Source: an uncultured Candidatus Saccharibacteria bacterium
Lineage (GTDB): Bacteria > Patescibacteriota > Doudnabacteria > UBA920
Reading direction: 5' to 3'
DNA: 64,000 bases
Assembly: GCA_964477745.1 (NCBI GenBank)
Contig: CAYZEI010000001.1
Span: 393-64,392 of the forward strand
A program made the translations under genes and the position numbers. Shown here in pieces: positions 9,893 through 30,974 of this stretch. How positions within the stretch are numbered: position 1 is the stretch's first letter; every line of letters starts with the position of its first letter. The notes under the pieces are model-generated. The model was not told where the DNA came from. It saw only the letters and a program-made list of their open reading frames with translations, and ran no database searches.

Positions 9893-11353
9893 TCACAAAG
9901 CGGTGCGGTGTTCAACTGCTTCATGGATACGGTTATTCCAGTGATAAATTATAAGATACAAACCTAAAACTGCTCCCATAAGTAGCCAAAATCCGGCCGT
10001 AGACAAATGGAAATTTAAACTGCTAAATGGCAAGCGCGCAAACCATTCGGTAACTTTTAAAATATACTCCAACAGTAAATTCCCTATAAATGCAAACCCC
10101 GGACCCATGCCGGGCAATAAACTTAAAAACCCAAACAGCATTGTGGCCGGAACAACCGGCAAAACTAATATGTTCACCGGCAGAGCCGACAAACTTAAGC
10201 GTTCAAAATTATACAACACCAAAGGCAGTGTGGCGAAAGTTGCCGACAAGGTGGTCAGTAAAATTGTTTTAGCTCCCCATAATTCCGGCCACCTTCCTGT
10301 GGCTCTATTCAATTCCGGCATAAAATAAATTATTCCCAAAGTTGCGGCAAATGACAACTGGAACCCAATGTCCCAAAACAATATTTTTGGGTTTAGAAGC
10401 ATCATTACCCCGCCGGCAAAAAATAGCGCCGGACCTACGGAATACTGCCTGCCGATATTGGAAGAAACCAAAAGCAAAAATCCCATCACGGCCGCGCGAA
10501 TAACCGAAGCTGAAGCACCGGTAATTAACACAAAAGCAATAATTATTGCGCCGGTAAACCAAAAACTAAATCGCCTGCCCAAAAAACGTGACAATACCGC
10601 CAGGGCCATTATCATAATGGTAATATTATATCCGGATACGGCAATAATATGAGAGGTGCCGGTAATATTAAAATTTTCTATAACCTTAGCCGGCAAAGTT
10701 TTTTTTGCCCCAATTAAAATCCCGAGCAATAAACTGTTTTGTGGCTCGGCATAAACTTGCGCTAAACGTTTAACTAGTGCCGTTTTCACTTTAAACAAAT
10801 TTTCAATAACTGGATTAAGCTGATGACTCTTTAATATAAATACTTTCGGATAAGACATTTGTGCGTAAACATTATGACGCTCCAAATAACCTTTGTAGTC
10901 AAAGTCTTCAAAACTTTTTGGCTCCATTATTTTTCCTTCGGCTAGAATTTTGTCCCCGTAAAAAAATTCTTGTACTAATGAGGTGGTAATTAAAATTCGT
11001 TGGGTTTCCCCATAGGGCAAAAAATACAACAGTTGACGATTCTCCCGGATATCCGGCTCTTGCACAATAAACCCCTCAAGCTTTTGCTTTTGTCCAAACA
11101 ACTCGGAATATTGACTACCTACAGAAACAATTTGCAACCGCAAAACCCCCAGGCCTAAAGTAAATAAAAACAGCGCTAAAATTGCGCCGGTTTGATAACT
11201 CTTTAAATAACAAAATACAAATATTGCAATTACTAAGGCCAGATAAAAATAAACCTGCTCCCGCTCAATTAACAAGGCCGAAGCCGTCAGCACCCCAACG
11301 GCAAAACTAATTACTAACCCAATAAATACGCGAGACTTAGACATCGATTTCAA
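9893..11353 (-). CDS. comEC: ComEC/Rec2-family DNA-uptake channel protein (DUF4131 + competence domain, no metallo-beta-lactamase domain)
   Basis: Polytopic membrane protein. ITGTSHIIAVSGYNITIM...ASVIRAAVMGF...DIGFQLSFAAT matches the ComEC competence domain. Confidence 0.75.
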   Translation of the reverse strand: MKSMSKSRVFIGLVISFAVGVLTASALLIEREQVYFYLALVIAIFVFCYLKSYQTGAILALFLFTLGLGVLRLQIVSVGSQYSELFGQKQKLEGFIVQEPDIRENRQLLYFLPYGETQRILITTSLVQEFFYGDKILAEGKIMEPKSFEDFDYKGYLERHNVYAQMSYPKVFILKSHQLNPVIENLFKVKTALVKRLAQVYAEPQNSLLLGILIGAKKTLPAKVIENFNITGTSHIIAVSGYNITIMIMALAVLSRFLGRRFSFWFTGAIIIAFVLITGASASVIRAAVMGFLLLVSSNIGRQYSVGPALFFAGGVMMLLNPKILFWDIGFQLSFAATLGIIYFMPELNRATGRWPELWGAKTILLTTLSATFATLPLVLYNFERLSLSALPVNILVLPVVPATMLFGFLSLLPGMGPGFAFIGNLLLEYILKVTEWFARLPFSSLNFHLSTAGFWLLMGAVLGLYLIIYHWNNRIHEAVEHRTAL

Positions 11354-11558
11354 AAACTTTTATTTTTGATTTCTCTCCCCGCAATAATTGTACTCTGGAT
11401 TTGCTGACTTTAAAATGCTTAGCCAGCGCCTCTATAACAGCTTTGTTAGCCTTGCCTTCCAATGGGGGCTGGTTAACGTAAATATGCAGGCTACCTAGCA
11501 GATCTTTATCTATACGGGGCTTCTTGCTGTTTGGGTGGACAAATACGGTCGCTCTCAT
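11337..11558 (-). CDS. DUF167 / YggU-family small protein
   Basis: 73 aa with PLEGKANKAVIEALAKHFKVSKSRVQLLRGEKSKIKVFEI, the characteristic YggU pattern. Overlaps its neighbours by a few bases (operon). Confidence 0.7.
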   Translation of the reverse strand: MRATVFVHPNSKKPRIDKDLLGSLHIYVNQPPLEGKANKAVIEALAKHFKVSKSRVQLLRGEKSKIKVFEIDV

Positions 11559-11983
11559 AATTTTCCTTTATATTTCTCTAAAAAAATCGCCAGTTGAGAA
11601 TGCGCTGGAGTCGGCAAATTGGATAAGGTAAACCATCCAACTTTATCAAATTTATCCGGTTCGCCATTTTTGGCCTTGCTTGGATCCACTAAAACTTTAA
11701 AATCTAAAGCAATCCAATGAACCATCTGCCCGTTTTGTTCCCTAAAAACATCGCGATAACCTAAAAGTTCAAAATCTAAAACCTCACAACCATATTCTTC
11801 TTTAATTTCTTTTTTCAAAGTAATTTCCGCGGTGTCACCGAACTCAATTCCCCCGGCGCCAATATCCCACGCGCCATGCTCGTCCCGCGCGTGCTTACTT
11901 CTTTGATGCATTAAAAAATTCCCTTTGCCATCGTGGCAAAAGTAAACTACGCTGTTTCCAATAAAATCTATGCCTTTTTGCAT
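11555..11983 (-). CDS. NUDIX hydrolase
   Basis: Nudix box GGIEFGDTAEITLKKEIKEEYG (Gx5Ex7REuxEExGu). Confidence 0.75.
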   Translation of the reverse strand: MQKGIDFIGNSVVYFCHDGKGNFLMHQRSKHARDEHGAWDIGAGGIEFGDTAEITLKKEIKEEYGCEVLDFELLGYRDVFREQNGQMVHWIALDFKVLVDPSKAKNGEPDKFDKVGWFTLSNLPTPAHSQLAIFLEKYKGKL

Positions 11984-11991
11984 GGGCAGAT

Positions 11992-12504
11992 TTAAGATTT
12001 AGGATGTAATATGTAAGATTTAAATCCAGCGAAATTCTTAGCAATGGCTAAAGCTCCAAACAAGGCAACGGCGTAGCCTACATCCCCTACTATGGTACCG
12101 CGCAGGAAAGGGAGGCCGTTAGCGTAGGCTAACATAATGCCGGCAAAATTATGTGGGTACTCGGCGTAAAGGTAGGCGAAGTTCGTAACCAAAAAAAATA
12201 ACACTGATGTGGACAAGGAAGAAAAAATAATTTTCGCCCAACGGTTATTTGAAGTATGCTTAATCCATAAGCCAAATAAAATCCCAGCTAGGTGGGAAGC
12301 GTAGACCGCCAGCATTAACGGCCAGGCAAAAAAACCTAAAAATATATCGCTCACAAACCGTGCGGCTAAAGTAATCCCAACTGACTTTTTCCAATCCAAA
12401 TTAACAGCAGAAAACATTGCCAGCGCGGTAATTAGCCCCACATTTGGCATATGAGGTATGAAGCGAGAAATTATTGCTAATACAACTATTGCATAAATTA
12501 ACAT
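11992..12504 (-). CDS. Small polytopic membrane protein (about 5-6 TM). Possible ECF-type substrate-capture (S-component-like) transporter; speculatively linked to B12 uptake.
   Basis: 170 aa, almost entirely hydrophobic helices. Lies beside the DUF4430-like lipoprotein and cobO. Confidence 0.5.
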   Translation of the reverse strand: MLIYAIVVLAIISRFIPHMPNVGLITALAMFSAVNLDWKKSVGITLAARFVSDIFLGFFAWPLMLAVYASHLAGILFGLWIKHTSNNRWAKIIFSSLSTSVLFFLVTNFAYLYAEYPHNFAGIMLAYANGLPFLRGTIVGDVGYAVALFGALAIAKNFAGFKSYILHPKS

Positions 12505-12639
12505 AAAACTATTCGGTAATTTTAATTCTTAAAATCCAAAACCCAAATTACAAATGCCAAATAAAATCCTAATGTCCAATTTCAAAACCCCAAACTTTTA
12601 TATCCATTTAGAATTTAGATTTTACTAAGACAGACGGAG

Positions 12640-13104
12640 CTACTGAATAGCATCCAGCTTCCACTCTAACACATCCGAGTCTTTGGTAACATAGCTTCCG
12701 GCGCCGACACTAGCGGATTTACCGTTAATAAAAAATTTCCAAAAATGTTTGGTATCCGGCTTAATCCCATTTATACTTTCCACAAATTCTCCGGCCGAAC
12801 CATAACTTTTTGTTTCCACTGTATATTTGGCCTTTAAAAGTTCCAACGCGTTTTTGCCTTCTTGGCCGTTATATTTAATAGCCGTTTCAACCGGCTTAGC
12901 TTCCACTGTTTTCTCTTTTACCTCTACTTGCGTCTTCGGTTTACTACTTTCTGTTTTACTAGCTGACTCAGCTGACTGCTTACTCGCTTGTTCCAAATTT
13001 GTATCATTCGTCCCCGCATCCCTAACCGGTTCAGTCTTATTACATCCTGCCGCTAAAAATACGACAGCCAAGGCGATTAATATAATTTTTTTATAATTTT
13101 TCAT
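12640..13104 (-). CDS. Lipoprotein with DUF4430-like C-terminal domain (candidate surface cobalamin-binding protein)
   Basis: Lipoprotein signal MKNYKKIILIALAVVFLAAGC. C-terminal ...GEFVESINGIKPDTKHFWKFFINGKSASVGAGSYVTKDSDVLEWKLD resembles the DUF4430 pattern (SING....YW.Y.VNG....GA....L.DGD.I.W.Y). Confidence 0.55.
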   Translation of the reverse strand: MKNYKKIILIALAVVFLAAGCNKTEPVRDAGTNDTNLEQASKQSAESASKTESSKPKTQVEVKEKTVEAKPVETAIKYNGQEGKNALELLKAKYTVETKSYGSAGEFVESINGIKPDTKHFWKFFINGKSASVGAGSYVTKDSDVLEWKLDAIQ

Positions 13105-13136
13105 ATCTTATATCTTACATGCTAAATGTTAAATTC

Positions 13137-13880
13137 TCAATAGTCTATCCCCTTTTGCGCCAAAATGCCTTTGTAATATGGATGCTGGATCATTTTCATT
13201 TCCGTAACCAGATCGCACTGTTTTAAAATTTTCGGGTAATGATTATGTCCGGTAATTACCAAATGTTGGAGCGGGGCTTTTAACTTAATTAAATCCAAAA
13301 TATCCCGCTCTTCCAATATCCCGACCTCAAGCGCGGAAATGATTTCATCTAAAATTACCAAATCGTATTCGCCGGACAAAATTATTTCCCGGGCGCGCTC
13401 CACGCCTTTAAGTGCGGCACGAATATGAATATCTTTTTCTTTTTGGTCGCCCAAGATCCCGACAAAGCCAAGGCCAACCTGTTCGTTATCAATACGACCT
13501 ATGGGACTCTTATAAGACACATTATTAAAAAAATCAATTTCACTGGAAACCGGCCACTCACCCTCGGTAATTTTTTCCGCTGATTTATTGGCCGCTTTGA
13601 CAAACTGTAAAATAAAAACACTCTTGCCGTCCCCGGCTGCCCGCACCGCCATACCCATAGCGGCCGTGGTTTTGCCTTTGCCCGCGCCAATATAACAAAT
13701 CACCAAGCCCTTTGGCTGGTCGGAAAACTTAGTGGGGATTTTAAGTTTTTTCTTTTTTTCAGTCATGGTGATCTTACCATCCCGAGTGCATCCGAGGGAT
13801 CCCTTTCTTTCTGTAATTAAGGGGCTCTTCGCTTCGCTCTCAGTGGCATTTTTTAAGCGGCCGGCTGTTAAGCCGGCCAC
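13137..13880 (-). CDS. cobO: Cob(I)alamin adenosyltransferase (CobO/BtuR/CobA family). The true start is probably the internal ATG at 13766.
   Basis: P-loop GAGKGKTTAAMG, VILDE, ITGHNHYPKILKQCDLVTEMKMIQHPYYKGILAQKGIDY (C-terminal GIDY as in BtuR). The N-terminal 38 residues of the annotated ORF look like an over-extension. Confidence 0.8.
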   Translation of the reverse strand: MAGLTAGRLKNATESEAKSPLITERKGSLGCTRDGKITMTEKKKKLKIPTKFSDQPKGLVICYIGAGKGKTTAAMGMAVRAAGDGKSVFILQFVKAANKSAEKITEGEWPVSSEIDFFNNVSYKSPIGRIDNEQVGLGFVGILGDQKEKDIHIRAALKGVERAREIILSGEYDLVILDEIISALEVGILEERDILDLIKLKAPLQHLVITGHNHYPKILKQCDLVTEMKMIQHPYYKGILAQKGIDY

Positions 13881-13895
13881 ATAATTTAAAAAAAA

Positions 13896-14315
13896 TTACT
13901 TTATTTTTGATTTTAAATCATCACGGTCAACTTCTGAAAGGAGTACAAATATACTTTCTCTTTTTCCACCTGGTGTTTCAAAACTTAATACTACTTGTTT
14001 ATAACCACTAGGCATCAATTCTCTTCTTTGTGCAATATTGTCGGCATAATTGACTTCCACATCTTGAGGTCTGGTAAAACTTTTATTTACTATCATTTCC
14101 CAATGAGCGTTGGTCATCATTCCGTCATACCCTAAGCCACCCAAATCAACATGAACAAAATGTATATCATCTGGCTTTTGCTCGTCCCGAAAAGCAACTG
14201 GCTTATTCTGAGGAGCCTGTTCCACATTTAAGGTAACTTGCTTCAAAATTCCTTTAAAATCTTTACCTTCGCGCATCTCTTTAGAACCAAAAGGGTTTTT
14301 ATATTTATCAGCCAT
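13896..14315 (-). CDS. Hypothetical protein (139 aa) between cobO and nrdJ
   Basis: ORF in operon context. No motif recognised. Confidence 0.4.
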   Translation of the reverse strand: MADKYKNPFGSKEMREGKDFKGILKQVTLNVEQAPQNKPVAFRDEQKPDDIHFVHVDLGGLGYDGMMTNAHWEMIVNKSFTRPQDVEVNYADNIAQRRELMPSGYKQVVLSFETPGGKRESIFVLLSEVDRDDLKSKIK

Positions 14316-14478
14316 AAATATTATTAATTCTTAATATCTTTTTAACTTTATTTCTGGATCCCGGCTCTTTAGATGCTACTGCGACCGGGATGGACACACT
14401 TGGATTTGTAGTCATTCGTAGTGCCCCTAATTCGTTGCTTCGTAGTGATTCGCAGATTAGTCCCATTCATAAATTCGA

Positions 14479-17154
14479 TTATCCACATTTTGAGTAGCCA
14501 CAAGACTCGCATTTCTGACAACCTTCGGCAAACACCAACATATTAGCACAAGAAGGACAAACCGGGGCGTTGCCAAGGTTGGCAATGGAAACTTTTTGCG
14601 TTTTTTTGTAAGTTAATGTGCCGTTAGTTTTTATTTTTTCTTCGGACACGGTTTCTACAATTTTTTCTTCCATTTTAATATCGGTCTCTGTTGTCATTTG
14701 CGCATCGGCTTTGGCTCCCATCCCAGGAAAATCCAAAGTCATTTGTTTGTCCGCACGCTTAATGTGTTTATCTAAAACTTTAGCCACGGCATCCGGCAAA
14801 CTAAATATTACTCCACCGTCCGAGAAAGACACATCAGGCCCACGAATGCCTTTAATCTGCGCAATAATTTCTTCAATAGCCACATTGGAACGCAAAGCCA
14901 AAGAAATTAAACGAGTAATGGCTTCAGTTTGAGCACTGAAGAATCCGCCGGCCTTACCCATTTGGGCAAACACTTCAAACGGCCCTTGGCTGTCTTCATT
15001 TACCGTAACATACAAATTGCCGTAAGCAGTGGTCATTTTGTAGGTAATCCCCTGCATTACATCGGGACGAGTACGCGGAGCAATTTTAATTTGCACTTTA
15101 TCACCTGACACGGACATAACCTCTTTAGGCTGAGATGATTCCTGCAAAGCCACAATTCCGGCGGCCGCATCTTGCTTGGCCTGAACCTGGTCGGAAGCGT
15201 CCTTGCCCAATTTTTTATGATCTGTGGCTAAAATTTGTTCGTCTCTGCTACCGTCACGATAAATGGTTCCACCTTTGCAACCAAGATCATACATTAAAGT
15301 ATAAAGCTCCTTGGTCTGTTCAACTGTATAGTTTTGGGGCGCGTTGCAGGTTTTAGAAATTGCGGAATCAGTCCAGCGCTGCACCGCGGCCTGTACCTTT
15401 ACGTGTTCTTCCGGAGCCAAAGACATGGCAGTGGCAAAATAATCCGGCAAATCTTGACCCGGGTGTTTGTCCAGCCAGTCCTGAGCCAATTTGATTTTTT
15501 CTTCGTGCACTCCAAGACGGGATTTTCTGAAATATGTCCAAGAGAAAAACGGTTCAATCCCGGTGGAAGTTCCCACCATAGTTCCGACAGTTCCGGTTGG
15601 TGCCTGAGTCATAATCGTGACATTGCGAATACCGTATTTGGAAACCAAATCCCGAATATAGTTCGGCATTTTTTTCATAAACCCGCTTTGTAAAAACTTT
15701 TCCGCGTCAAATTTTTCAAACGCGCCTTTTTCTCTGGCCAATTCAATCGAAGTTTCGTACGCAGTTACGGCAATAAATTGATACAGTTTGTCGATAAAAT
15801 CCACAGCCTCGGCACTGCCGTATTTTATTCCTTTGTAAATCATCATCTCGGCTAAACCAATAGTGCCCATACCGACACGGCGCTCGGACATTTGCTGATT
15901 TTTATTTTCATCAAAGAAATATGGCGTGGCATCTATAACATTGTCTTGAAACCGCACGGCATACTGCACGGTAGATTTAAGTTCGTTCCACATTATTTCC
16001 CCGGTATCTTTGTTTATGTGCTTGGACAAATTCACATGACCCAAATTACATACGCCCCAGGCCGGCAGTGGTTGTTCACCACACGGGTTGGTACAAGGCA
16101 AATCCGCATAGTACCAAGAGTTGGAATAATAGTTGGCGCGGTCAATAAAATACATTCCCGGTTCCGCACTGCTCCAAGCCGAAGAAATAATGTTGTCCCA
16201 AATATCCTGGGCGCGCACGGTTTTGTGCTTAATAACTTTTCCGCCAAGTTCGCGCCACTTGTTCATGTTGCCGTCCCATTTCTCGGCATAAAGCGGATCG
16301 GATGTATCCGGGAACACCAAGTCCCACGGCTTGTCTTGTTTGACCGCTTCCATAAAGTCGTCGGTGATGCCTACGGAAATGTTGGCGTTGGTAATTTTGC
16401 CGGCTTCTTTTTTGGAATTTATAAAATCTATTACGTCCGGATGCCAGACATTTAAAATTAACATTAACGCGCCACGCCTGGAACCGCCTTGCTCAATTAG
16501 GCCTGTGACAAAACTATAGAGTGATGCCCAAGACACACTACCACTGGACCTGCCGTTTACCCCTTTAACATACGCGTAGCGCGGACGCAAAGAAGACACA
16601 TTAATTCCCACCCCGCCGCCGCGAGACATAATCTCCGCCATTTGGCCGAGGGTGTTAAAAATTCCATGACGACTGTCTTTGGGTGAAGGCACCACGTAGC
16701 AATTATAAAAAGTTAAATTCTGGCCGGTGCCCGCGCCGGTAAAAATTCTGCCGGCCGGTACATACTTCCAATCGTCCATCAGTTTTCTGAACTTGCCTTC
16801 CCATTCGGTTTTCTTTTCCGCGGTTTTTTCCACGCTGGCAATATGTTTGGCAATCCGGTCAAACATATCTTCCGGGACTAACTCAAGAGGCTTGTCCACG
16901 TGCTCAATGGTGCGGTATTCAATTTCTCCGCCACGCATGCGCACGCTGACTTCGCGAGTTTCGCGATTCACATTCTCTATGGTGCCGATTTCGCGTTGGC
17001 CGGTTTTTGGGTTAACCAAAACCACCACGGTGTCCCCCACCGTTAAAGTTTCGCGCTTTACGTCTTTAACCGCGTAACGGTCTAAGAAGATTTTTTCGCC
17101 GAGCTCAGATAGCCCGTTTACTGCCCTGGTTTGTAAGTTGACTTTGGATTGCAT
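14479..17154 (-). CDS. nrdJ: Class II (adenosylcobalamin-dependent) ribonucleotide reductase
   Basis: NPCGEQPLPAWGVCNLGHVNL active-site motif and an 891-aa RNR-like layout. C-terminal Cys4 zinc ribbon CPSC...CQKCESCG. Confidence 0.9.
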   Translation of the reverse strand: MQSKVNLQTRAVNGLSELGEKIFLDRYAVKDVKRETLTVGDTVVVLVNPKTGQREIGTIENVNRETREVSVRMRGGEIEYRTIEHVDKPLELVPEDMFDRIAKHIASVEKTAEKKTEWEGKFRKLMDDWKYVPAGRIFTGAGTGQNLTFYNCYVVPSPKDSRHGIFNTLGQMAEIMSRGGGVGINVSSLRPRYAYVKGVNGRSSGSVSWASLYSFVTGLIEQGGSRRGALMLILNVWHPDVIDFINSKKEAGKITNANISVGITDDFMEAVKQDKPWDLVFPDTSDPLYAEKWDGNMNKWRELGGKVIKHKTVRAQDIWDNIISSAWSSAEPGMYFIDRANYYSNSWYYADLPCTNPCGEQPLPAWGVCNLGHVNLSKHINKDTGEIMWNELKSTVQYAVRFQDNVIDATPYFFDENKNQQMSERRVGMGTIGLAEMMIYKGIKYGSAEAVDFIDKLYQFIAVTAYETSIELAREKGAFEKFDAEKFLQSGFMKKMPNYIRDLVSKYGIRNVTIMTQAPTGTVGTMVGTSTGIEPFFSWTYFRKSRLGVHEEKIKLAQDWLDKHPGQDLPDYFATAMSLAPEEHVKVQAAVQRWTDSAISKTCNAPQNYTVEQTKELYTLMYDLGCKGGTIYRDGSRDEQILATDHKKLGKDASDQVQAKQDAAAGIVALQESSQPKEVMSVSGDKVQIKIAPRTRPDVMQGITYKMTTAYGNLYVTVNEDSQGPFEVFAQMGKAGGFFSAQTEAITRLISLALRSNVAIEEIIAQIKGIRGPDVSFSDGGVIFSLPDAVAKVLDKHIKRADKQMTLDFPGMGAKADAQMTTETDIKMEEKIVETVSEEKIKTNGTLTYKKTQKVSIANLGNAPVCPSCANMLVFAEGCQKCESCGYSKCG

Positions 17155-17286
17155 AAATTAATTGTCCATAATTGATCAAAATTGACCATGACTGATCAGA
17201 ATTTTGTTTCAACCTTAATTGATATTATTGTTTCGTATGTTCGCCTGCCTGCCGGTAGGCAGGTATGAATTCGTACTTCGTAAAAT

Positions 17287-17733
17287 CTATAACTTCTTCA
17301 ACTCTTCTTTAAACTCGTCCACATCTTCAAACTGTCTGTATACTGCCGCGAACCTGACATATGCTACCTTGTCTGCTTTCTTTAAAGTCTTCATCACTAT
17401 CTCACCAATTTCCGAACTCTTAATTTCTCCGTCCTTAGCTTTACGCTGAATGTCTATTTCTATAGAGGAAAGGAGTTTCCGTCGCTTGTCATCAGTGCAG
17501 GGGCGTTTGTCTAATGGCAGGCGTAAAGCTCGTTCCAGCTTTTCTTTAGAGAATGTTTGCTTACTACCATCCTTTTTAACTACCGACAATCCTAGAATTT
17601 CTATTTCCTCGTAAGTACTAAAGCGGAACTCGCATTTTTCACATTCCCTCCGCCTACGAATCGCATCCCCCTCTTCTACCGGTCGACTGTCTAACACTTT
17701 AGTATCTTCAAACTGGCAATTGGGACAACGCAT
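17287..17733 (-). CDS. nrdR: Transcriptional repressor NrdR
   Basis: MRCPNCQFEDTKVLDSRPVEEGDAIRRRRECEKCEFRFSTYE (zinc ribbon) plus an ATP-cone (KVAYVRFAAVYRQFEDVDEF). Matches NrdR near-colinearly. Confidence 0.9.
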   Translation of the reverse strand: MRCPNCQFEDTKVLDSRPVEEGDAIRRRRECEKCEFRFSTYEEIEILGLSVVKKDGSKQTFSKEKLERALRLPLDKRPCTDDKRRKLLSSIEIDIQRKAKDGEIKSSEIGEIVMKTLKKADKVAYVRFAAVYRQFEDVDEFKEELKKL

Positions 17734-17977: not shown

Positions 17978-18022
17978 ACTAGATATAGTATCTCTAGTAA
18001 TAATTGTAATACTACATATAGT
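17978..18022. promoter_or_regulatory. Candidate tandem NrdR boxes (ACTAGATATAGT and ACTACATATAGT, 33 bp apart) in the nrdR-nrdJ upstream region
   Basis: Each is one mismatch from the NrdR-box core ACTATATATAGT as I recall it. A spacing of about three helical turns is typical of NrdR box pairs. They lie in a 700-bp non-coding stretch upstream of nrdR. Confidence 0.45.
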
Positions 18023-18140
18023 TTTTTACAAGGCCTTGAATTTATTAACAATTTAATATAAAAAAATTATGCGACCTGGAGATATCCACAAAAAATAAAT
18101 AAAACATCCCCTTTTCAATATTAAGGATATTGTATCAAAT

Positions 18141-18175
18141 ACAAAAACCCCCGGGGGCACAGCCGGGGGTTTGAA
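18141..18175. terminator. GC-rich hairpin terminator (AAACCCCCGG-loop-CCGGGGGTTT) flanked by A- and T-runs
   Basis: Seen directly. Likely terminates the 18435..18869 transcript on the minus strand. Confidence 0.6.
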
Positions 18176-19279: not shown

Positions 19280-19681
19280 CTAAGCGCTTACATTTACTAT
19301 GCGCTTATAATGTAATCCGCTTGGACCAAAATACGCCAATATCCCTAACTGCAATTTTTTTGCCACTAAATAATTATAGACCTGATCAATATGAGCTTTG
19401 GAAAATTTATCCCCTCTTTTCAACTCAACTACAACAATATTTTCAACTAAAAAATCAAAATAATTTTTTCCCACAATCTTACCTTCAAACAATATCGGGG
19501 CATACAACTGTTCTGTGTATTTTAAACCCGCCTTAGTCAACCCTACGGCAACAGCTTTTTGGTAAGTCTTTTCATATAATCCATAACCCAAACTTCCGTA
19601 CACATTTAAAAGGACACCAACGATTCTAAAGCATAGTTCGGGATAAATTAAATCCTGTCGCTTTAAAACATTTGGTGTCAT
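19280..19681 (-). CDS. GxxExxY-family protein (PD-(D/E)xK nuclease superfamily), embedded in a family-1 hairpin element
   Basis: LGYGLYEKTYQKA...GL....Q...P...G......D.LVENIVVVELK......H.DQVYNYL....LQLGILAYFG....KRIV matches the GxxExxY consensus I remember. Start and stop codons abut the two halves of the element. Confidence 0.7.
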   Translation of the reverse strand: MTPNVLKRQDLIYPELCFRIVGVLLNVYGSLGYGLYEKTYQKAVAVGLTKAGLKYTEQLYAPILFEGKIVGKNYFDFLVENIVVVELKRGDKFSKAHIDQVYNYLVAKKLQLGILAYFGPSGLHYKRIVNVSA

Positions 19682-21122: not shown

Positions 21123-24100
21123 CTATTTGACAGGTTTAGCGGGTTTTTTAGGATTTCCACCGCCTGCTTCTCTTTCGGCCCTGCGTTCCAACATTCTCTT
21201 ATGGGAGTCTTCCAATGCTTTTTTAATATCTTCAACTTGAGCGTCCGGAGGAATGCGTAAGAAATTTTTTGCCCCAAAGGCGGGCTTAGTCGCGCCGGCC
21301 TCAAAAGATAACAGGACTCCTTTACTTAAATCAGTATCCCGATGTGATGGATTTGTCTTATTCAGCAAACCATCTCTAATATTTTTCGGAAGTTGGTCTA
21401 ATGCAGAGTCAAATGCTTTCAATACTTTAAGCTTGTCACTGTCAGGCATTAATTTCCCGTCCATTATATAGTGCACCCGTTTTCCAGTCTTCTCCAATAG
21501 TTCCTTGCTCGCTGTGCCAAATTCAGTACCACCGGTTTCATTTGTCGATTTGGCGGTTTCTGATTTCGTCTCGACAAGCTTTTCGGATCCGGGTTTAGCA
21601 GTGGTTTCCGAAGCCCCTGGTTTCGGAGGCGCTTCAGAGCCTGGCTTAGGAGCAGCCGCTTTAGCTGCCGCTTCAATTTTTGCTTCCTCTTCCACTACAT
21701 CACCATAAAACTCCTCAACCTGATTTTGCTTTATTATATTCCCGGCAATTAAAGCTTGCTCCATTTGCCAAACAGCTTCTGCCCTCTCGGCTTTAGTAGC
21801 TTTATCCGGCTTTAAAATTTTTCCTTTATGAGCATCTCCCTCAACCACAAACCGAATAGCCTTTTTATCTATTTTTTTCAGGCCGGTATTTTGTCCGTAT
21901 AACTCAAGTAAGGCCGCGGCATATTGTGGGTTTAGGTAGCGCTTTAGAACATCACCTTTAAACTCAGGGGCTTTAGCTTCTGTGGTCTCACCGGCTGCTT
22001 TTTTGGTACCATCTTCTTGGCTTCCTCCTCCCCCACCACCAGACTCATTTCCGCCACTGCTACCTTTATCACCTGCTTTTTGGTCACCAGCTTTCTTTTT
22101 TGCTTCCTTTTCTTCTTGCTCTTTGTCTTTCTTTTCTTTATCCGCTTTTTGCTTGGCTTCTTTTTCTGCTTTTTTCTTTTGCTTCTTTTCTTCTTTTTCA
22201 TTTTCCCCGGGGCGATAGAAAACTTTTCTTTGTGGGGGAACAGTCGGCAAAGCTTGGTCATATTCAACCGGGCCTTTAACAGGCATAAAATCCTGGACGA
22301 CATCCTTTTTCCCAAAATCTATGCCCTGTCCGTTATTTTTTTCACTATTTATCCAAATATAATTTTTACTGCCATCACTTCTAGCCCCAGTTGCTTCCGC
22401 CAAGCCAAAGAACCCGGTGCCCTTTGGCCGTCCTGTGGCCGGGTCAAACAATTTGGCAATATTACTGTCTTTTGGAATTATTACTTCGTGGGTTTTGGAA
22501 TCCACATCTAAAACTATTGCGTCATGGGCATTTTTTCCGTCCGGCACAAATATCATTTTTATTTTTCCGTCCGCAAAAGCCTTTTCTAAATCCGGTTCCT
22601 GAACTTCCTGATTATGTATCATCCACGAACCGTCCTTCTCTACCGGAACTTTAAAATGAAAATTCCCACTACTATCTTTATTTATATAAAACTTCAATTC
22701 ATTGCCATTATGAGTATGTGGGGTTTCCCCAGTCGGGTTGTCGTACCAATTTTGCGTATGAATTTTTTCAATATTTCCTCCCGCAATATGGCCTTTTAAG
22801 CCTTTCATCCATTCCATTGAGGTCTGGTCACGGCTTCCGGTCACCACATGTTCCACCGCTGTTGCCCCGGCCATTACCGGATGCCCATCAAAATTACTTT
22901 GGTAGAACTTTGTACCTTTTACGCCATCTACAATCTTATCAAAAGAAGTATGGTGATTTTTAAAATAACTCCCACCCCATAACTTTTCAACCTGCTCACC
23001 ACCCAAATGTATAGCTTCCTGCGCTAAAATCCCACCGGCAAAACCCATAACCGCACCCTTTAATCCCGACACTAGCATTTCTTTTCGTTTAAAATCACCC
23101 TGTTTTTCGTTGACTTGTTTTATAACATCCAAAATGGCATTTTTTTCTTCATTGGCCATTATTTGCAAATCTTGCTCTTTAATTCCTAATTCTTTTAAGG
23201 CAATCTTTAAGTCGACTTTTGCCGAAACATTAGAACCATAACGTTTACCTTGGTCTTCATCCATACTAAACAAATCTACTTTGGTAAGCTTTTTACTTTG
23301 GTCTGCAATGGCATCTCTCTCTAATTGTAACCGCGCATAAATTTTTGCTAATTGCTGTTTCTCAGCTTCGGTGAAAGTTGTTTTGTCTTTCATAGATGCA
23401 ACTACTGCCATAGCATCTTTGAATGACATAACTACAGCATCATAACTGCGCTCACCTTTTTCACCCAAAACATCACTCCCTTTTCCGCCCAAAGTTTTTT
23501 GGCGCAATTCCTGAGCAGTATCATATTCCGTATCTTTACCGCGTTTAATCGCGCGATATACTCCCCCAACAGCTGCGCCAACTCCCAAAGGAACCCAAAA
23601 CCCGCCACCCGTTGCTACAGTGGCGCCACCAACCGCTGCCCATTTAATTGCACGCTGAACTCCTTGAGTGGCCACTGTTGTGGCGACACCCATAACAAAT
23701 GGGTTTAGTAGTATTTTGCCTAAAACCTTATTATTTTCACCCCAATTAACTGCTCTCTCAGATAAATTTAAAATGCCTTTCGGACGATTATTTACAATAT
23801 CCCTATCCTTAAAGCCCAATTGCAAATTCAAACCCCGGACACCTTCTACCTGCTTGCTTATAGCATCACGGATTGTTTCAATATTAGCTTCAGGATTCTT
23901 ATCCATAACTTCTTTAACCACCGCATCAATCTCTGATTTGTTTTCCTTATCTATAGATTCTAAAATTTCATAAAAATTGCTCGCATACAAAAGACCCTTG
24001 GTTTCATTTGTCCTGTCATTATTTGTGGTCCATTTCCCAGCCGATCTCCTGTTAATATAACCCGCAATGTTTTCTTTTACAAACAATTCTACAGCCGCAC

Positions 24101-26015
24101 GCTTATCTAATCCCTTATAGGCATCGCCGTCCCATTTATTGGTTCTATACCTATGCAACAGTTCTGAAAATCTGTCTTGAACTTCGGGATCATTATTCAT
24201 ACTGTCTCCAACCTCCCGCTGAGTGTCTACTAACTCTTTTTTATATTCCAAAACAACCTTATCCAACATTTCCAAGTATTCGCTGGATACAAGAGCTCCT
24301 GCTCCCGGCACTTCTACGCCAGATACCCGCTCAGAAATTGCCTTCATCAAATTATTATCTTTTTTAATTTCTTCTCTGGCCTCGGTAATAAGATTACGGC
24401 GGGTGGCAGCCTCTGTCATTCCCTTCCAAGCATTTTTTATAACCTTGCCAAAAAACCCGCCCTTGTGGTCAAAATGTTTTCTTAATTTTTCTTCAGCCTT
24501 TGTTTCCGCCATACGCTCAGCAATTGCGGAAATATCTATTAAGAAAAGCTTTTTGTCAGTTTTTTCTGGAGCAGGTACTTCTTTTACTGGAATTACGTCA
24601 AGTTTATTTTCCCAATCATAAGGCTTTTCATCATTTTCCAATTTATGTTTTGCTGGAGTTGGAGTTGGCTTTAAAGTAACAACAGGAGACTCTTCAGGAA
24701 TAATCTTTGTTGTAGATTCTGTGGTAGTAATAGGCGTTAGTTCTGGAGTTTTTTTAATAACCGGAGTGGATACAACTTCCGATTCCAATTCCTCTTTTGG
24801 CACCTGCTGTTCTTGTGGCAATACCAAAACCCGCCTGCTTTCCAACGCAAGCATGGCTAATTCATAATTCTGTCGCAACTCGTCCATTTTATCAAAATCT
24901 TGAGGCAACTTATTTTCTCCAACAAATCTTTCCAAAAGCATAGCCTTGTACTCTTCGTCTTTTGCAATAAGGTTGGCCTCGCGTTCGGTATAAAGATGTT
25001 GCTCCCTCTTTTGGCCTTCACCTAAGGGACTAACCGCCTCGCCGTCCTTTTTATAATTTTTTGGGTAATGAAAAGCAAAATACGGCAAGGAACTTTCTGA
25101 AAGCACCTTAACCAAATTATGATATTTGCCTAACGTTTTAGTACGGACATCCAGTTGTTCTTTTAGTTTTTTGTCGTCAATTTTTAAATATTTTTCCACC
25201 CGCTGGCGTAAAGCTTCGCCCAATTGCTGTTTTTTAAACTCTTCGTCATAACCGCCAAATACTTTCCCTTCCGCTTCGGCCTTTTTCCTGTCCGCTTCTT
25301 CCCAAGCTTCCACTTCTTTATACGCTTCTTCTTTAAGTTTATCTTTAACCGGCAACTTGTTTAACACTTCAAACCAAGCCATTTTCTTTTTGGCCTCTTC
25401 CCCACTAATATTTGCTCTAACGGATGCTAACTCATATTTTTCTTTAACTTTCCTGCTACCTTCTATACCCGCTTCTGTTCGGTGGGCTTGTCTGACCTGT
25501 TTTTCTGTTAATGCTCTTAACCTTTGGACTACTGTAATAAGCTCATCTACCGGTAAACCCTCCAACCGATGCGCATTAACTTTACCATTATTGTCCAGCA
25601 CTTCCACGGAATAGTTTTCTCCGTCTACAATTTTACTTTTCGCACCCTCCACGCTTTTTTGGATCCACTGTAGACGCGCTCTATCTTTAGCGGAAAGACT
25701 TGGTTCTGACAAAGCATTGGAAATTAAACGCAAAGAACCGTCTACGGACTCTTTAATTTCCGCTCGTTCCCGCGAAACTCTTTCGTTCTGTTCTTTAACT
25801 CTGTCAATTTCTGCCTGATTTTTTACCTTTTTTGTTTCCGGATTATCTTTTTTTACTGGCTGTTCTTTTTTTGCACCACTGTCAACAACGGGTTTACCAT
25901 TTTCCGGTTTATGTCCGCCATTGCCGTTATGCTCGGAGATTTGCTGTTCCCAGGTTTTACCGGCAAGTCTCTCGCTTGCTAATCTGACAGTGTCAAAACC
26001 ATTTTTTTTCGCCAT
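21123..26015 (-). CDS. Giant (1630 aa) K/E-rich coiled-coil protein with central glycine-zipper hydrophobic hairpin(s) and a C-terminal presumably extracytoplasmic domain; function unknown
   Basis: No signal peptide. About 790 N-terminal residues are charged and helical. Hydrophobic Gly-rich segments: ILLNPFVMGVATTVATQGV...AAVGGATVATGGGFWVPLGVGAAVGGVY and LKGAVMGFAGGILAQEAIHLGG. A KE-rich low-complexity block (EKEEKKQKKKAEKEAKQK...GGGGGGS). Pro-rich KPGSE repeats near the C-terminus. Confidence 0.7.
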   Translation of the reverse strand: MAKKNGFDTVRLASERLAGKTWEQQISEHNGNGGHKPENGKPVVDSGAKKEQPVKKDNPETKKVKNQAEIDRVKEQNERVSRERAEIKESVDGSLRLISNALSEPSLSAKDRARLQWIQKSVEGAKSKIVDGENYSVEVLDNNGKVNAHRLEGLPVDELITVVQRLRALTEKQVRQAHRTEAGIEGSRKVKEKYELASVRANISGEEAKKKMAWFEVLNKLPVKDKLKEEAYKEVEAWEEADRKKAEAEGKVFGGYDEEFKKQQLGEALRQRVEKYLKIDDKKLKEQLDVRTKTLGKYHNLVKVLSESSLPYFAFHYPKNYKKDGEAVSPLGEGQKREQHLYTEREANLIAKDEEYKAMLLERFVGENKLPQDFDKMDELRQNYELAMLALESRRVLVLPQEQQVPKEELESEVVSTPVIKKTPELTPITTTESTTKIIPEESPVVTLKPTPTPAKHKLENDEKPYDWENKLDVIPVKEVPAPEKTDKKLFLIDISAIAERMAETKAEEKLRKHFDHKGGFFGKVIKNAWKGMTEAATRRNLITEAREEIKKDNNLMKAISERVSGVEVPGAGALVSSEYLEMLDKVVLEYKKELVDTQREVGDSMNNDPEVQDRFSELLHRYRTNKWDGDAYKGLDKRAAVELFVKENIAGYINRRSAGKWTTNNDRTNETKGLLYASNFYEILESIDKENKSEIDAVVKEVMDKNPEANIETIRDAISKQVEGVRGLNLQLGFKDRDIVNNRPKGILNLSERAVNWGENNKVLGKILLNPFVMGVATTVATQGVQRAIKWAAVGGATVATGGGFWVPLGVGAAVGGVYRAIKRGKDTEYDTAQELRQKTLGGKGSDVLGEKGERSYDAVVMSFKDAMAVVASMKDKTTFTEAEKQQLAKIYARLQLERDAIADQSKKLTKVDLFSMDEDQGKRYGSNVSAKVDLKIALKELGIKEQDLQIMANEEKNAILDVIKQVNEKQGDFKRKEMLVSGLKGAVMGFAGGILAQEAIHLGGEQVEKLWGGSYFKNHHTSFDKIVDGVKGTKFYQSNFDGHPVMAGATAVEHVVTGSRDQTSMEWMKGLKGHIAGGNIEKIHTQNWYDNPTGETPHTHNGNELKFYINKDSSGNFHFKVPVEKDGSWMIHNQEVQEPDLEKAFADGKIKMIFVPDGKNAHDAIVLDVDSKTHEVIIPKDSNIAKLFDPATGRPKGTGFFGLAEATGARSDGSKNYIWINSEKNNGQGIDFGKKDVVQDFMPVKGPVEYDQALPTVPPQRKVFYRPGENEKEEKKQKKKAEKEAKQKADKEKKDKEQEEKEAKKKAGDQKAGDKGSSGGNESGGGGGGSQEDGTKKAAGETTEAKAPEFKGDVLKRYLNPQYAAALLELYGQNTGLKKIDKKAIRFVVEGDAHKGKILKPDKATKAERAEAVWQMEQALIAGNIIKQNQVEEFYGDVVEEEAKIEAAAKAAAPKPGSEAPPKPGASETTAKPGSEKLVETKSETAKSTNETGGTEFGTASKELLEKTGKRVHYIMDGKLMPDSDKLKVLKAFDSALDQLPKNIRDGLLNKTNPSHRDTDLSKGVLLSFEAGATKPAFGAKNFLRIPPDAQVEDIKKALEDSHKRMLERRAEREAGGGNPKKPAKPVK

Positions 26016-26370: not shown

Positions 26371-28089
26371 TTAGGACAAGGCCTTAGAAATTCTGTCCAA
26401 AGCTTCGTCACTTAATGAGCCAAAAAGACCATCTTCATCACTGCCAATTTCTTCAGTTCCGAATATTTCTGCCACATATTTTAATTCTTTTTTTGCAGGC
26501 TTAACTACAACCGGCTCCGCTTCCCGAATTGGTTCTTCAGTTACAGGATCAAGTACTACTTTTGTAACTTCCGGAGCATCAACTATTTCAGGCTTTGTTT
26601 CTACAACTTTTTTAACGTGCCATAAGTCTGTTGGTAGAGGTTTGGCTCGCACATAACCTAATAGCGAATATTTTAAAACTTTCGCTTTGGTCATAGTTTC
26701 GTTTTCCGGCGCTTCCGCAAGAGGGTGGTCTTTTAAATACTCTTTTAACCCATCCATAGAAAGATTGTACAACTTCTGAAACTCCTTTAAAAATTCTTGT
26801 CTTGCGCCGACAAGAGTTTCTTTTCCCAATAAATAAAGCGCTTCAGTGCCTTTAAGCCCGGCATTTTGGGACAATTCAGATAAAATACTTTTGTATCCCA
26901 ACGCCTTTTCCAAAGATTCAAAGCGTGTCTTTAATAACTCCATAAAAGCTTTGGCCTTGGCTTGAAACTCTGGACTATTAAAATGCTCCTCGTCGGTACT
27001 CCAACGATTAATATTTCTTTCCGGCTGTGCGGGTAAAGGCGTTTGTACTAATTTTTCAAATCTTTTCTCACCAATAGCTTCAATCCATGTGTCCAAAACT
27101 GCCTTACTTTGGATTGATTCCTTAAAAGATGTTGTCTTAGTAAAATCTGGGAATTGAATTTGGGATCTATTTAAAACATCTTCAAAATCACCGCGCTCCT
27201 TTTTTTCGGAATCGGTTAAACTAATAAATTTTTTTCTTCGTAAAGCCAAATATTTTTCCACTTCAGGTTTTGACTTTTTGGTAATATTAACCAATTCTTC
27301 CACAGAAAAAGCATCTATTTCCTGCCAGTTATCAATTCTCCCATTCGGTCCCACGCCCACAACCAGATCACCTTTTTCTACGGCAAATCTAGGGTAAAAT
27401 TTTCCATTTGTCTCTACTAAAACTTGTCTGCAGGCTTCCACATATTTTTTTAACTCTTCCGGGCTTGCCACTTGTGCTACCGGAGACAAATAAATATAAT
27501 ATGGGGTCTTTTCTTTCCCCGCAATAACCGCCTTTAATTTATAAGGCAATCTGCTTTCGTCTATGGTTATTGATTCGGCCTTAAGTTCAGTTTCAGGATT
27601 TTCTGCCACTGCTGGAGCAACTACTTCCTGAACTTCAGCGCTGTCCTCGGGGATTACCGGCTCTACTTCAGGCTCGAGCATATAACCCAAGTATTCATCA
27701 CATTGGCGCTGATATTCTTCGTTATCAACTTGATGCGTTTTCCATCCTTTAACCACAGTCTTTATTTCATCATCAGACATTTCTTCCAAATAATTCTGCG
27801 GGGTAAGGGCAATGCTTTGTAAAAAATCCAACATCTCCGGTTGAGATTCTTCTATGCTAGTCGCAATGGATTTTAAATAACTGTTCAAATCAACCACACC
27901 CAGGCTTTCATCGTTGACTTCTTCAGGATGCTGACGATAATTAAATCCTACGGCAAAAGCCAAACGCGATTTTTTGGAAATACTTTTAGGCAAATCTTTA
28001 ATTTCTGAAATTTCAGGAACATCTGGAACATTAGGGGCACCTTCTAGCCCCTTTAAGTCTGATAATTTAGTATATTTAGATTCGTCCAT
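26371..28089 (-). CDS. Acidic soluble protein (572 aa), first gene of the giant-protein operon
   Basis: 21-bp gap to the next gene. No TM. E/D-rich. No family recognised. Confidence 0.6.
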   Translation of the reverse strand: MDESKYTKLSDLKGLEGAPNVPDVPEISEIKDLPKSISKKSRLAFAVGFNYRQHPEEVNDESLGVVDLNSYLKSIATSIEESQPEMLDFLQSIALTPQNYLEEMSDDEIKTVVKGWKTHQVDNEEYQRQCDEYLGYMLEPEVEPVIPEDSAEVQEVVAPAVAENPETELKAESITIDESRLPYKLKAVIAGKEKTPYYIYLSPVAQVASPEELKKYVEACRQVLVETNGKFYPRFAVEKGDLVVGVGPNGRIDNWQEIDAFSVEELVNITKKSKPEVEKYLALRRKKFISLTDSEKKERGDFEDVLNRSQIQFPDFTKTTSFKESIQSKAVLDTWIEAIGEKRFEKLVQTPLPAQPERNINRWSTDEEHFNSPEFQAKAKAFMELLKTRFESLEKALGYKSILSELSQNAGLKGTEALYLLGKETLVGARQEFLKEFQKLYNLSMDGLKEYLKDHPLAEAPENETMTKAKVLKYSLLGYVRAKPLPTDLWHVKKVVETKPEIVDAPEVTKVVLDPVTEEPIREAEPVVVKPAKKELKYVAEIFGTEEIGSDEDGLFGSLSDEALDRISKALS

Positions 28090-28248: not shown

Positions 28249-28980
28249 TTACGGGGTAATAACCCCGAGTACAGGCACAATCTTGTGCCCAACAGTAGCT
28301 GCCGGTCCGGAGACCGGCCACAGCCACCATGCCAAGAATGCTTCAGCGGGGCAAAAGCCGATTTTCTCGGCAGTTCCCCACTTGGACCAATCGCGGATAC
28401 CAACGGTGTACGCATACACGCAGTGGATAACCGGTAACTTGGTCCACAAAGGCCGACCCTTCTTGTCCCAAGTCAAGGTGACCTGGTACTGTCCGGTTTC
28501 CGGCCAATCGGGCGGGGGCGGAAGCTCGTTGAGCTCCACCGGCGGTTCGGCCGGTGGTAAAGTTACTTCCGGTTCCGCAGGTGGCGGAGGTGGTGGTGGC
28601 TCGGGAGCCGGTGGCGGAGGTGGTGGTGGAACAGGAACGTACTCAAGAGAATACACCTTATTCCCGCAATCATACCGCACCATTACTGAACTTCCGGAGA
28701 AGATGAACTTCTCGCCGGCTGCTTGGGGAACAAACCCCTTGCCACCAACGATATCCATCTCTACGCACGCACGCTCCTCAAGAGCGCGAATTTCTTCACC
28801 AACCGCCGGTTCGCGGTGACGGTTAAGGAAAGACGGGGTGTAATTTGAAAACTCCCCACTCTCCACCGCCGAGACGCACGCGGCCATTGTTGCAAAACGC
28901 GTTTTGCCGGTTTCCGCTCCGAAGAGCATCATCCCGGCGAAGATTGAAAGACACAAGAGTTTCAACATAGCCACCAACAA
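28249..28980 (-). CDS. Secreted poly-proline protein (243 aa) with Trp-rich C-terminal domain
   Basis: Signal peptide MLVAMLKLLCLSIFAGMMLFGA. PVPPPPPPPAPEPPPPPPPAEPE tract. Local GC well above the window average. Confidence 0.55.
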   Translation of the reverse strand: MLVAMLKLLCLSIFAGMMLFGAETGKTRFATMAACVSAVESGEFSNYTPSFLNRHREPAVGEEIRALEERACVEMDIVGGKGFVPQAAGEKFIFSGSSVMVRYDCGNKVYSLEYVPVPPPPPPPAPEPPPPPPPAEPEVTLPPAEPPVELNELPPPPDWPETGQYQVTLTWDKKGRPLWTKLPVIHCVYAYTVGIRDWSKWGTAEKIGFCPAEAFLAWWLWPVSGPAATVGHKIVPVLGVITP

Positions 28981-30443: not shown

Positions 30444-30974
30444 GGAAATGGACTCCTTAGATTTCCGGCGCTCGCCGGTTTTTTTGCAAGAATAGCGAGC
30501 GCCTCTTGCAGACAGTAGAGAATTAACTTCCCTATTCTCCGCAAAAGGCGTAACCATTCCTTGCAACAATCCAATTTCTCCATTCTATTCCCTATTCGCT
30601 AATCGCTATTTACTAAACTAAAAGTAACGCTTTATAACTTAAACCTCCGTTTAAGTTTTTATTAAAGAACTTGCCTATTTAATGTAGAGACAATCTCCCA
30701 TTAAGTAGACCTTATATTATACTCTTTTTTCAGTATTTTGTCAAGTCCTAATCTAAATACTAATTAACTAATAAAATGCCTTATTTAAGCCAAAAAAATC
30801 AAAAAGAGGTATCGGCGAGCAAATATGCTCAAGCGCGACACCTCTGACGAATAAATCTTGCGTTTTGTTGGGTTCGCTACCCAAGCGTAATCAGTCAATT
30901 TGGACACAACTGACTACTACTTCCTCCTACTAAATTCTTTCTTCAAAAATGCTGAATCTGGATCGTCCAAAATT

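Follow-up and report, generated by a model that had tools for sequence, protein, structure and literature searches.

A predicted NrdR-controlled operon links class II ribonucleotide reductase to proposed corrinoid salvage through DUF6580 and DUF4430 proteins in Doudnabacteria

Background

For many B12-dependent prokaryotes, the inner-membrane transporter of this vitamin is still to be identified (PMC6072759). The same question is raised by a locus in the 64,000-nucleotide stretch of contig CAYZEI010000001.1 analyzed here (hereinafter, the window), which comes from an uncultured bacterium of the Doudnabacteria, within the candidate phyla radiation (CPR). Six open reading frames (ORFs), all on the minus strand between positions 11992 and 17733, encode a DUF6580 membrane protein, a DUF4430 lipoprotein, a CobO/BtuR-type ATP:cob(I)alamin adenosyltransferase, an orphan protein of 139 amino acids (aa), the adenosylcobalamin (AdoCbl)-dependent class II ribonucleotide reductase (RNR) NrdJ, and the repressor NrdR. 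How would the cofactor reach NrdJ? A first-pass annotation, made from the sequence alone, had placed the six same-strand genes at these positions and read them as a chain of corrinoid capture, import, adenosylation and use, with the membrane protein and the orphan as candidates for the transport or chaperone steps. The core of this chain is supported by the similarity of the lipoprotein to the transcobalamin beta-domain, by the S-component fold of the membrane protein, and by the riboswitch and salvage-gene contexts of its homologs, whereas the orphan drops out as a step.

The account of the locus that we hold to be likely, and favor with some confidence, is an operon that is controlled by NrdR and makes deoxyribonucleoside triphosphate (dNTP) synthesis by NrdJ self-sufficient in cofactor through the salvage of external corrinoids. 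A further and distinctly more tentative proposal is that DUF6580 is, besides CbrT and BtuM, a third family of corrinoid transporters of the S-component-like type, one that would be independent of the energy-coupling factor (ECF) module and would receive its substrate from an extracytoplasmic binder, namely the DUF4430 lipoprotein in the monoderm CPR and a Peripla_BP_2 protein in the diderm Acidobacteria.

Results and Discussion

Pfam and NCBIfam profile searches identify the products of five of the six ORFs and uphold the gene arrangement. The window has a GC content of ~40%, and the named homologs of its proteins come from Doudnabacteria and Patescibacteria. A scan with one genome per species yields 49 DUF6580 loci (hereinafter, reference-genome loci). 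The genes for NrdR, NrdJ, CobO, DUF4430 and DUF6580 are collinear in ~35-40 of these, all from Doudnabacteria/Patescibacteria, where the block order FtsZ-transmembrane (TM) protein-NrdR-NrdJ-CobO-DUF4430-DUF6580-(NUDIX)-YggU-ComEC is the same as in the window. The DUF4430 and DUF6580 genes are neighbors in 45 of the 49 loci. Such recurrence shows that the arrangement is not due to chance.

DUF6580, a distinct family with an S-component fold

The gene at 11992..12504 (minus strand) encodes a small integral membrane protein of 170 aa (~19 kDa) that matches PF20221 (DUF6580) with 115.9 bits (cutoff 27, E = 2.8e-33). Its size and its six to seven helices agree with those of S-components (~160-200 aa, six or so helices). 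A search of the PDB at E <= 10 with a profile made from 36 DUF6580 sequences identifies exactly one match, to chain A of 6FNP (6FNP_A, CbrT; E = 1.4e-3, ~70 residues), the structure of the Lactobacillus delbrueckii transporter for vitamin B12, ECF-CbrT (PMC5997447). Comparison of the AlphaFold2 model of the protein (predicted local distance difference test score, pLDDT, 86; predicted template modeling score, pTM, 0.80) with the PDB using Foldseek ranks two structures of cobalamin-bound BtuM, 8c7p and 8ovv, first (probability 1.00, TM-score ~0.56), followed by the ECF S-components FolT, ThiT, RibU and PanT; the E-values are modest and the ranking is coherent. Thus, the nearest relatives of DUF6580 by sequence (CbrT) and by structure (BtuM) are the two known B12-specific proteins of the S-component type, and the family is assigned the ECF S-component fold on the strength of the predicted model. 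The gene product is accordingly annotated as a predicted corrinoid translocator.

Membership in either of the two known families was considered and rejected. The defining feature of BtuM is the conserved Cys80 in loop 3, which serves as an axial ligand of cobalt (PMC6072759). The protein from the window contains no cysteine among its 170 residues, no cysteine is invariant across the DUF6580 family alignment, and no BtuM chain is found among the PDB matches at E <= 10 with either the single sequence or the profile, so that the likeness to BtuM is structural only. As for CbrT, the protein has no match to PF12822, and the CbrT fragment matches PF12822 but not PF20221. The first-pass suggestion of a transporter is therefore retained as to fold and nearest relatives and given up as to membership in the BtuM or CbrT family. 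The literature searched contains no mention of DUF6580 or PF20221, and we regard DUF6580 as a distinct, unpublished family of membrane proteins.

The residues that are invariant across the family are R14, P17, H18 and N21, which belong to the RFxPHxPNF motif in loop 1 (present in the protein from the window), together with S52-D53, N108, Y116 and P132-F133. No histidine other than H18 is universally conserved; by inference only, this residue is a candidate for contact with cobalt or the ligand. In some Doudnabacteria (homologs P0018, P0095 and P0103), the loop between helices 4 and 5 contains a charged insertion of 20-45 residues that the protein from the window lacks.

Genomic contexts of DUF6580 outside Doudnabacteria

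The collinearity described above is weak evidence of functional coupling because the entire block from FtsZ to ComEC is syntenic within the clade, and the functional argument rests therefore on independent contexts in other phyla. A compact CobO-DUF4430-DUF6580 cassette is found in Komeilibacteria and in two lineages of Parcubacteria, in other surroundings and without an adjacent nrdJ. In a Terriglobales genome, the DUF6580 gene is followed by those for CbiZ and CbiB, which are involved in cobinamide salvage. Further contexts come from a sample of four progressively divergent acidobacterial homologs (loci L060-L063). All four DUF6580 operons are directly preceded, on the same strand, by a cobalamin riboswitch (93-127 bits, compared with a gathering score of 31.5); a TonB-dependent receptor gene precedes in three of the four, and a gene for a protein of the Peripla_BP_2 family, which includes BtuF, follows in two. 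The riboswitch and receptor context of DUF6580 represents the same genomic logic that led to the discovery of BtuM (PMC6072759).

In each of these four riboswitch-controlled operons, a gene of the Asn_synthase or Diphthami_syn_2 family lies beside the DUF6580 gene. Both are PP-loop-type families that utilize ATP, and this gene may encode an unrecognized enzyme of corrinoid salvage. Locus L060 additionally contains a second DUF6580 paralog and a TonB_C gene.

The DUF4430 lipoprotein and the transcobalamin beta-domain

The gene at 12640..13104 (minus strand) encodes a protein that begins with a signal peptide and lipobox and ends in a DUF4430 domain, with ~60 aa of low-complexity linker in between. 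The first-pass annotation had called it a DUF4430-like lipoprotein with a link to cobalamin and had proposed a check against the Pfam model; the protein matches PF14478 (57.4 bits, cutoff 23.8, E = 2e-15). The assignment as a lipoprotein is based on the signal peptide and the lipobox, MKNYKKIILIALAVVFLAAG followed by C (..FLAAGC), in which Cys21 is conserved in at least 90% of 30 orthologs.

A PDB search started with the single sequence detects only a weak match to haptocorrin (E = 0.16). In contrast, a profile built from the 30 orthologs of the syntenic loci identifies the isolated beta-domain of human transcobalamin-2 (TC2; 5NO0) with E = 1.6e-4, full-length TC2 with E = 1.6e-3 and TC1 (haptocorrin) with E = 2.2e-3, whereas intrinsic factor is a weak match. 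The FW and G..Y..G..E motifs of the lipoprotein align with the transcobalamin beta-domain. As judged from these alignments, the C-terminal domain of ~70 aa is homologous to the beta-domain shared by transcobalamin, haptocorrin and intrinsic factor. Taken with the lipobox, the profile matches therefore indicate a membrane-tethered relative of the eukaryotic B12 carriers that consists of the beta-domain only, displayed on a lipid anchor and a linker, without the alpha6/alpha6 alpha-domain. Lacking the latter, the lipoprotein would contact one face of the corrinoid only. Corrinoid binding by this protein is predicted from the homology and the gene context.

At locus L045 (7295-10492), a secreted protein of 714 aa is encoded between the DUF4430 protein and DUF6580 and shows weak matches to DUF4430 and to the alpha-macroglobulin thioester domain (TED). 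Given that the alpha-domain of transcobalamin is also an alpha/alpha barrel, this protein might represent the full transcobalamin-like architecture in a bacterium.

CobO, NrdJ and predicted regulation by NrdR

The adenosyltransferase gene (cobO, 13137..13766, minus strand) was correctly recognized in the first-pass annotation, as were those of NrdJ and NrdR, and only the start of the cobO ORF has to be revised. The CobO protein matches PF02572 (CobA_CobO_BtuR) with 173 bits (cutoff 25.7, E = 7e-51) and contains the P-loop GAGKGKTT. It falls below the cutoffs of the NCBIfam equivalog models (153.1 against 167.75 for TIGR00708 and 157 against 185 for NF004637) and represents a diverged CPR form that carries an insertion within the sequence. 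The GTG start at 13880 was rejected in favor of the ATG at 13766, which yields a protein of 209 aa and is the most likely start because orthologs begin there and the 38 extra codons overlap a conserved RNA hairpin.

This hairpin is a GC-rich stem-loop (13857..13880, minus strand; GUGGCCGGCU-UAAC-AGCCGGCCGC followed by UUAAAAAA) that was delineated by folding and by comparison with relatives. It lies within the cobO leader (13767-13895), for which the folding z-score is -3.4. A stem-loop of 9-12 bp with compensatory changes, followed by TTAAAAAA, is located upstream of cobO in L005, L015, L023, L037, L041 and L049. It is not a canonical terminator because no T-run follows, and it may act as an attenuator, or as a processing or stability element, between nrdJ and cobO.

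NrdJ (14479..17154, minus strand) scores 588 bits with the equivalog model TIGR02504 (cutoff 399.95), and class I models score lower. The protein combines the domains PF02867 (E = 2.5e-123) and PF12637 (TSCPD domain, E = 1e-21) with a cysteine-rich C-terminal tail, CPSC...CQKCESC. NrdR (17287..17733, minus strand), a repressor of RNR genes with a Zn-ribbon (PF22811) and an ATP-cone (PF03477), likewise exceeds its equivalog cutoff (TIGR00244, 176 bits against 124.65).

Upstream of nrdR, a tandem NrdR operator is predicted at 17979..18021 (minus strand), which consists of the boxes CTATATGTAG (18012-18021) and CTATATCTAG (17979-17988), 33 bp apart, and overlaps a promoter-like site, TTGTAA-17-TACAAT (18003-18031). 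Apart from these two boxes, CTATATNTAG has no exact match in the 64 kb, and 19 of 33 related loci have a pair of boxes with a spacing of 32-33 bp upstream of nrdR. The consensus of the NrdR box and the tandem spacing were reportedly described by Rodionov and Gelfand in 2005; the uniqueness of the palindromic boxes and the conservation of the pair fit this known operator. A search for the cobalamin riboswitch (RF00174) finds none in the window at the gathering score and none between 11000 and 19000 at E <= 1. From these sequence features, the operon is predicted to be controlled by NrdR rather than by a riboswitch. As in other members of the NrdR regulon, tandem palindromic boxes about three helical turns apart lie over the promoter of an RNR operon; what differs from the usual pattern is that genes for cofactor uptake and activation would be under NrdR, in place of the usual control of B12 transport by a B12 riboswitch.

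A model for corrinoid capture, import and use

In the model that we favor, the lipoprotein, tethered outside the single membrane, would capture the corrinoid with its transcobalamin-beta-like DUF4430 domain on a flexible linker. It would then hand the corrinoid over to DUF6580, which would carry it across the membrane, probably by toppling in the manner of S-components. In the cytoplasm, CobO would adenosylate the corrinoid, thereby also trapping it metabolically, and the resulting AdoCbl would be loaded into NrdJ. Expression of the whole set would follow the dNTP/ATP status through NrdR, and not the B12 level through a riboswitch. No cob/cbi enzyme was detected among the profile-scanned proteins of the window, and no reductase for the conversion of Co(II) to Co(I) that would supply CobO was identified.

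Precedents exist for the logic of such a cluster. The nrdJ-cbrS-cbrT-pduO cluster of L. delbrueckii (Rodionov 2009; Santos 2018; PMC5997447) also brings together, in a B12 auxotroph, a B12-dependent RNR, a small accessory lipoprotein, a protein with the S-component fold and a corrinoid adenosyltransferase. A gene beside rtpR in L. rhamnosus encodes a DUF4430 protein, which may be the listed additional lipoprotein component. The components differ: the membrane protein belongs to PF20221 here, whereas the CbrT fragment belongs to PF12822; the adenosyltransferase is of the CobA/CobO/BtuR type rather than the PduO type; the reductase is a TSCPD-type NrdJ, compared with the triphosphate reductase RtpR of L. 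rhamnosus; and the operon of the window includes nrdR and resides in a CPR host. BtuM, a solitary transporter of Proteobacteria, co-localizes with btuR, and metabolic trapping has been proposed for it by the authors of that work (PMC6072759). BtuM is the best structural match of DUF6580, which also resembles it in size (~19 kDa compared with ~22 kDa), in the btuR/cobO partner gene and, in Acidobacteria, in its position downstream of a TonB-dependent receptor, which parallels that of BtuM with BtuB. Unlike BtuM, with which it shares no detectable sequence similarity, the DUF6580 protein lacks the cysteine axial ligand and is paired with an extracytoplasmic binder, either a DUF4430 lipoprotein or a Peripla_BP_2 protein, a pairing that has not been described for BtuM. 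Thus, the cluster logic is known from Lactobacillales and from BtuM-BtuR, whereas the DUF6580 family, the CobO-type enzyme, the predicted NrdR control, the CPR host and the recurrent pairing with a binder set the present operon apart.

Several observations, besides the synteny of the clade, weigh against this model. Its steps are deduced from sequence, structural modeling and gene context. Solitary CbrT does not transport without the ECF module (PMC5997447). At locus L051 from Chitinophagales (9917-12442), the DUF6580 gene is followed by BioD-like (AAA_26) and BioA-like (Aminotran_3) genes, which hints that some members of the family handle biotin or a precursor rather than corrinoids, so that specificity may vary within the family. 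The lineage represented by L052 retains NrdJ and CobO without DUF4430 and DUF6580 at this locus: in L052/L053 (10001-12476), the order is NrdR-NrdJ-orphan homolog-methyltransferase-CobO-NUDIX. Here, either B12 is imported in another way or the DUF4430/DUF6580 pair is encoded elsewhere. A cobalamin riboswitch found in L051 was discarded, being 8.5 kb away and on the other strand.

Alternative explanations

The alternative that survives best is that DUF6580 acts as an ordinary ECF S-component of group II and, like CbrT, needs a shared EcfA/A'/T module encoded elsewhere, with the lipoprotein as an accessory of the CbrS type. We consider this possible but doubtful. CbrT, which is inactive on its own, is the sole sequence match in the PDB, one DUF6580 homolog (P0078) is also annotated with PF12822, and the Lactobacillales cluster has the same list of parts; yet the protein from the window itself has no PF12822 match, and its best structural match is the solitary BtuM, which works alone (PMC6072759). 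Among the loci whose gene context or Pfam labels were inspected, none showed ecfA or ecfT beside DUF6580, and, apart from a MacB-type system, a motif scan of the 64-kb window revealed no ABC-type (ECF-like) ATPase. Furthermore, members of the DUF6580 family are common in Acidobacteria and Bacteroidota, which are diderm, and lie there downstream of TonB-dependent receptors, a BtuM-like setting. On balance, we favor solitary, BtuM-like operation of DUF6580 over dependence on a shared ECF module encoded elsewhere.

The second alternative concerns the orphan (13896..14315, minus strand), which could work together with NrdJ or in B12 trafficking, for instance as a chaperone, as an activase or as a factor that loads the cofactor. 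The orphan has no family in Pfam, NCBIfam, PHROGs or PADLOC and no match in the PDB profile search; it contains no signal peptide, TM segment, cysteine or recognizable domain. A word-indexed search retrieves the orphan itself only, and an exhaustive HMMER search of 1.84e9 representatives finds one real homolog, P0122, with 47% identity. A second candidate, P0123, a eukaryote-like tandem-repeat protein, was judged spurious because 18 weak repeat matches add up to an inflated E-value. P0122 is encoded directly after nrdJ in a lineage in which NrdJ is 83% and CobO 78% identical to those of the window; a methyltransferase gene comes next, and the DUF4430/DUF6580 pair is absent from the locus. This identical position and the preservation of an intact ORF with conserved blocks in the two lineages speak for a role connected with NrdJ, as does the location of the orphan upstream of the conserved stem-loop, owing to which it is probably co-transcribed with nrdJ.

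Nevertheless, none of the 49 reference-genome loci contains the orphan, not even L049, the closest of them, where NrdJ is 96% identical and the spacer is 124 nt. The orphan evolves much faster than its neighbors, and its AlphaFold2 model, made from a three-sequence alignment, is unusable (pLDDT 46.6). Between nrdJ and cobO, most relatives have a spacer of anywhere from 4 to over 1,400 nt, and L027 has one of more than 3 kb. The genes in this spacer encode GIY-YIG nucleases (7 loci), a DUF559 endonuclease, S-adenosylmethionine (SAM) methyltransferases (3 loci) or a DUF6899 protein, or else are unrelated singletons; insertions occupy this junction in L004, L006, L007, L011, L026, L027, L036, L040, L028, L030, L032 and L052. 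The spacer is thus an insertion hotspot that accommodates small genes of a selfish or accessory nature. Given this variable content and its absence from the 49 loci, the orphan is best interpreted as a real, fast-evolving, lineage-specific accessory gene carried by an insertion of ~580 bp between nrdJ and the cobO leader. The first-pass idea that it is a transporter or chaperone finds no support in a soluble protein with this distribution, and a partnership with NrdJ or B12 trafficking appears improbable.

Finally, import of a non-corrinoid, i.e., another vitamin or precursor, by the DUF4430/DUF6580 pair, with the proximity of cobO and nrdJ being inherited synteny, would accommodate the collinear FtsZ-ComEC block, the BioD/BioA-like neighbors in L051 and the known divergence of S-component families in substrate (PMC5997447), but is opposed by the riboswitches of the acidobacterial operons, the CbiZ-CbiB adjacency, the cassettes in three other CPR lineages with different surroundings and the homology of DUF4430 to a B12-binding domain, and we consider it highly unlikely.

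Boundaries of the transcription unit and other features of the window

The 5' boundary of the transcription unit is set by a strong intrinsic terminator at 18145..18172 (minus strand; a stem of 10 bp, 7 of them GC pairs, and then a T-run) that ends the upstream gene. Between nrdR and the NUDIX gene, no convincing intergenic terminator was found, and the nrdJ-orphan and DUF4430-DUF6580 intergenic regions fold no better than shuffled sequences. Downstream of the DUF6580 gene, Pfam matches identify a NUDIX hydrolase (11555-11983, minus strand), separated from it by a gap of 8 nt, and a YggU/DUF167 protein (11337-11558, minus strand), whose gene overlaps the preceding one by 4 nt. Both genes (11337..11983) are probably co-transcribed with the operon and have no demonstrated link to B12; they are syntenic in most relatives, and the NUDIX gene is kept in L052, where the DUF4430/DUF6580 pair is absent from the locus.

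Elsewhere in the window, a small and possibly selfish gene of the PD-(D/E)XK_3 nuclease superfamily (19280-19681, E = 1.5e-26) is located within the conserved block, between ftsZ and the TM144 gene. Two large ORFs without any Pfam domain, at 21123-26015 (1630 aa) and 26371-28089 (572 aa), lie directly downstream of ftsA and upstream of ftsZ. The segment 28000-32000 has a GC content of 0.50-0.53, compared with ~0.40 elsewhere, and its minus-strand ORFs (28249-28980, 29196-30569 and 30975-32024) match no Pfam family except for a weak zinc-ribbon match. Foreign DNA or a chimeric assembly could account for this segment.

Conclusions

The family DUF6580 gains a concrete, testable function from four independent lines of evidence, namely fold, riboswitch control, linkage to salvage genes and linkage to RNR. 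The recurring pairing with a binder, together with the uncharacterized lipoprotein of the Lactobacillales cluster, points to an unstudied accessory step in vitamin uptake of the S-component type; if the proposed mechanism is true, binding-protein-dependent transport by the S-component fold would be a new mode of transport. For the biology of the CPR, the model predicts that dNTP synthesis depends on corrinoids from community members or hosts, and that the import of the cofactor is tuned by NrdR to nucleotide demand rather than to the level of B12. The more tentative proposal of ECF-independent, binder-fed transport, if true, would also account for the way in which many CPR bacteria acquire the single cofactor on which their DNA synthesis depends.

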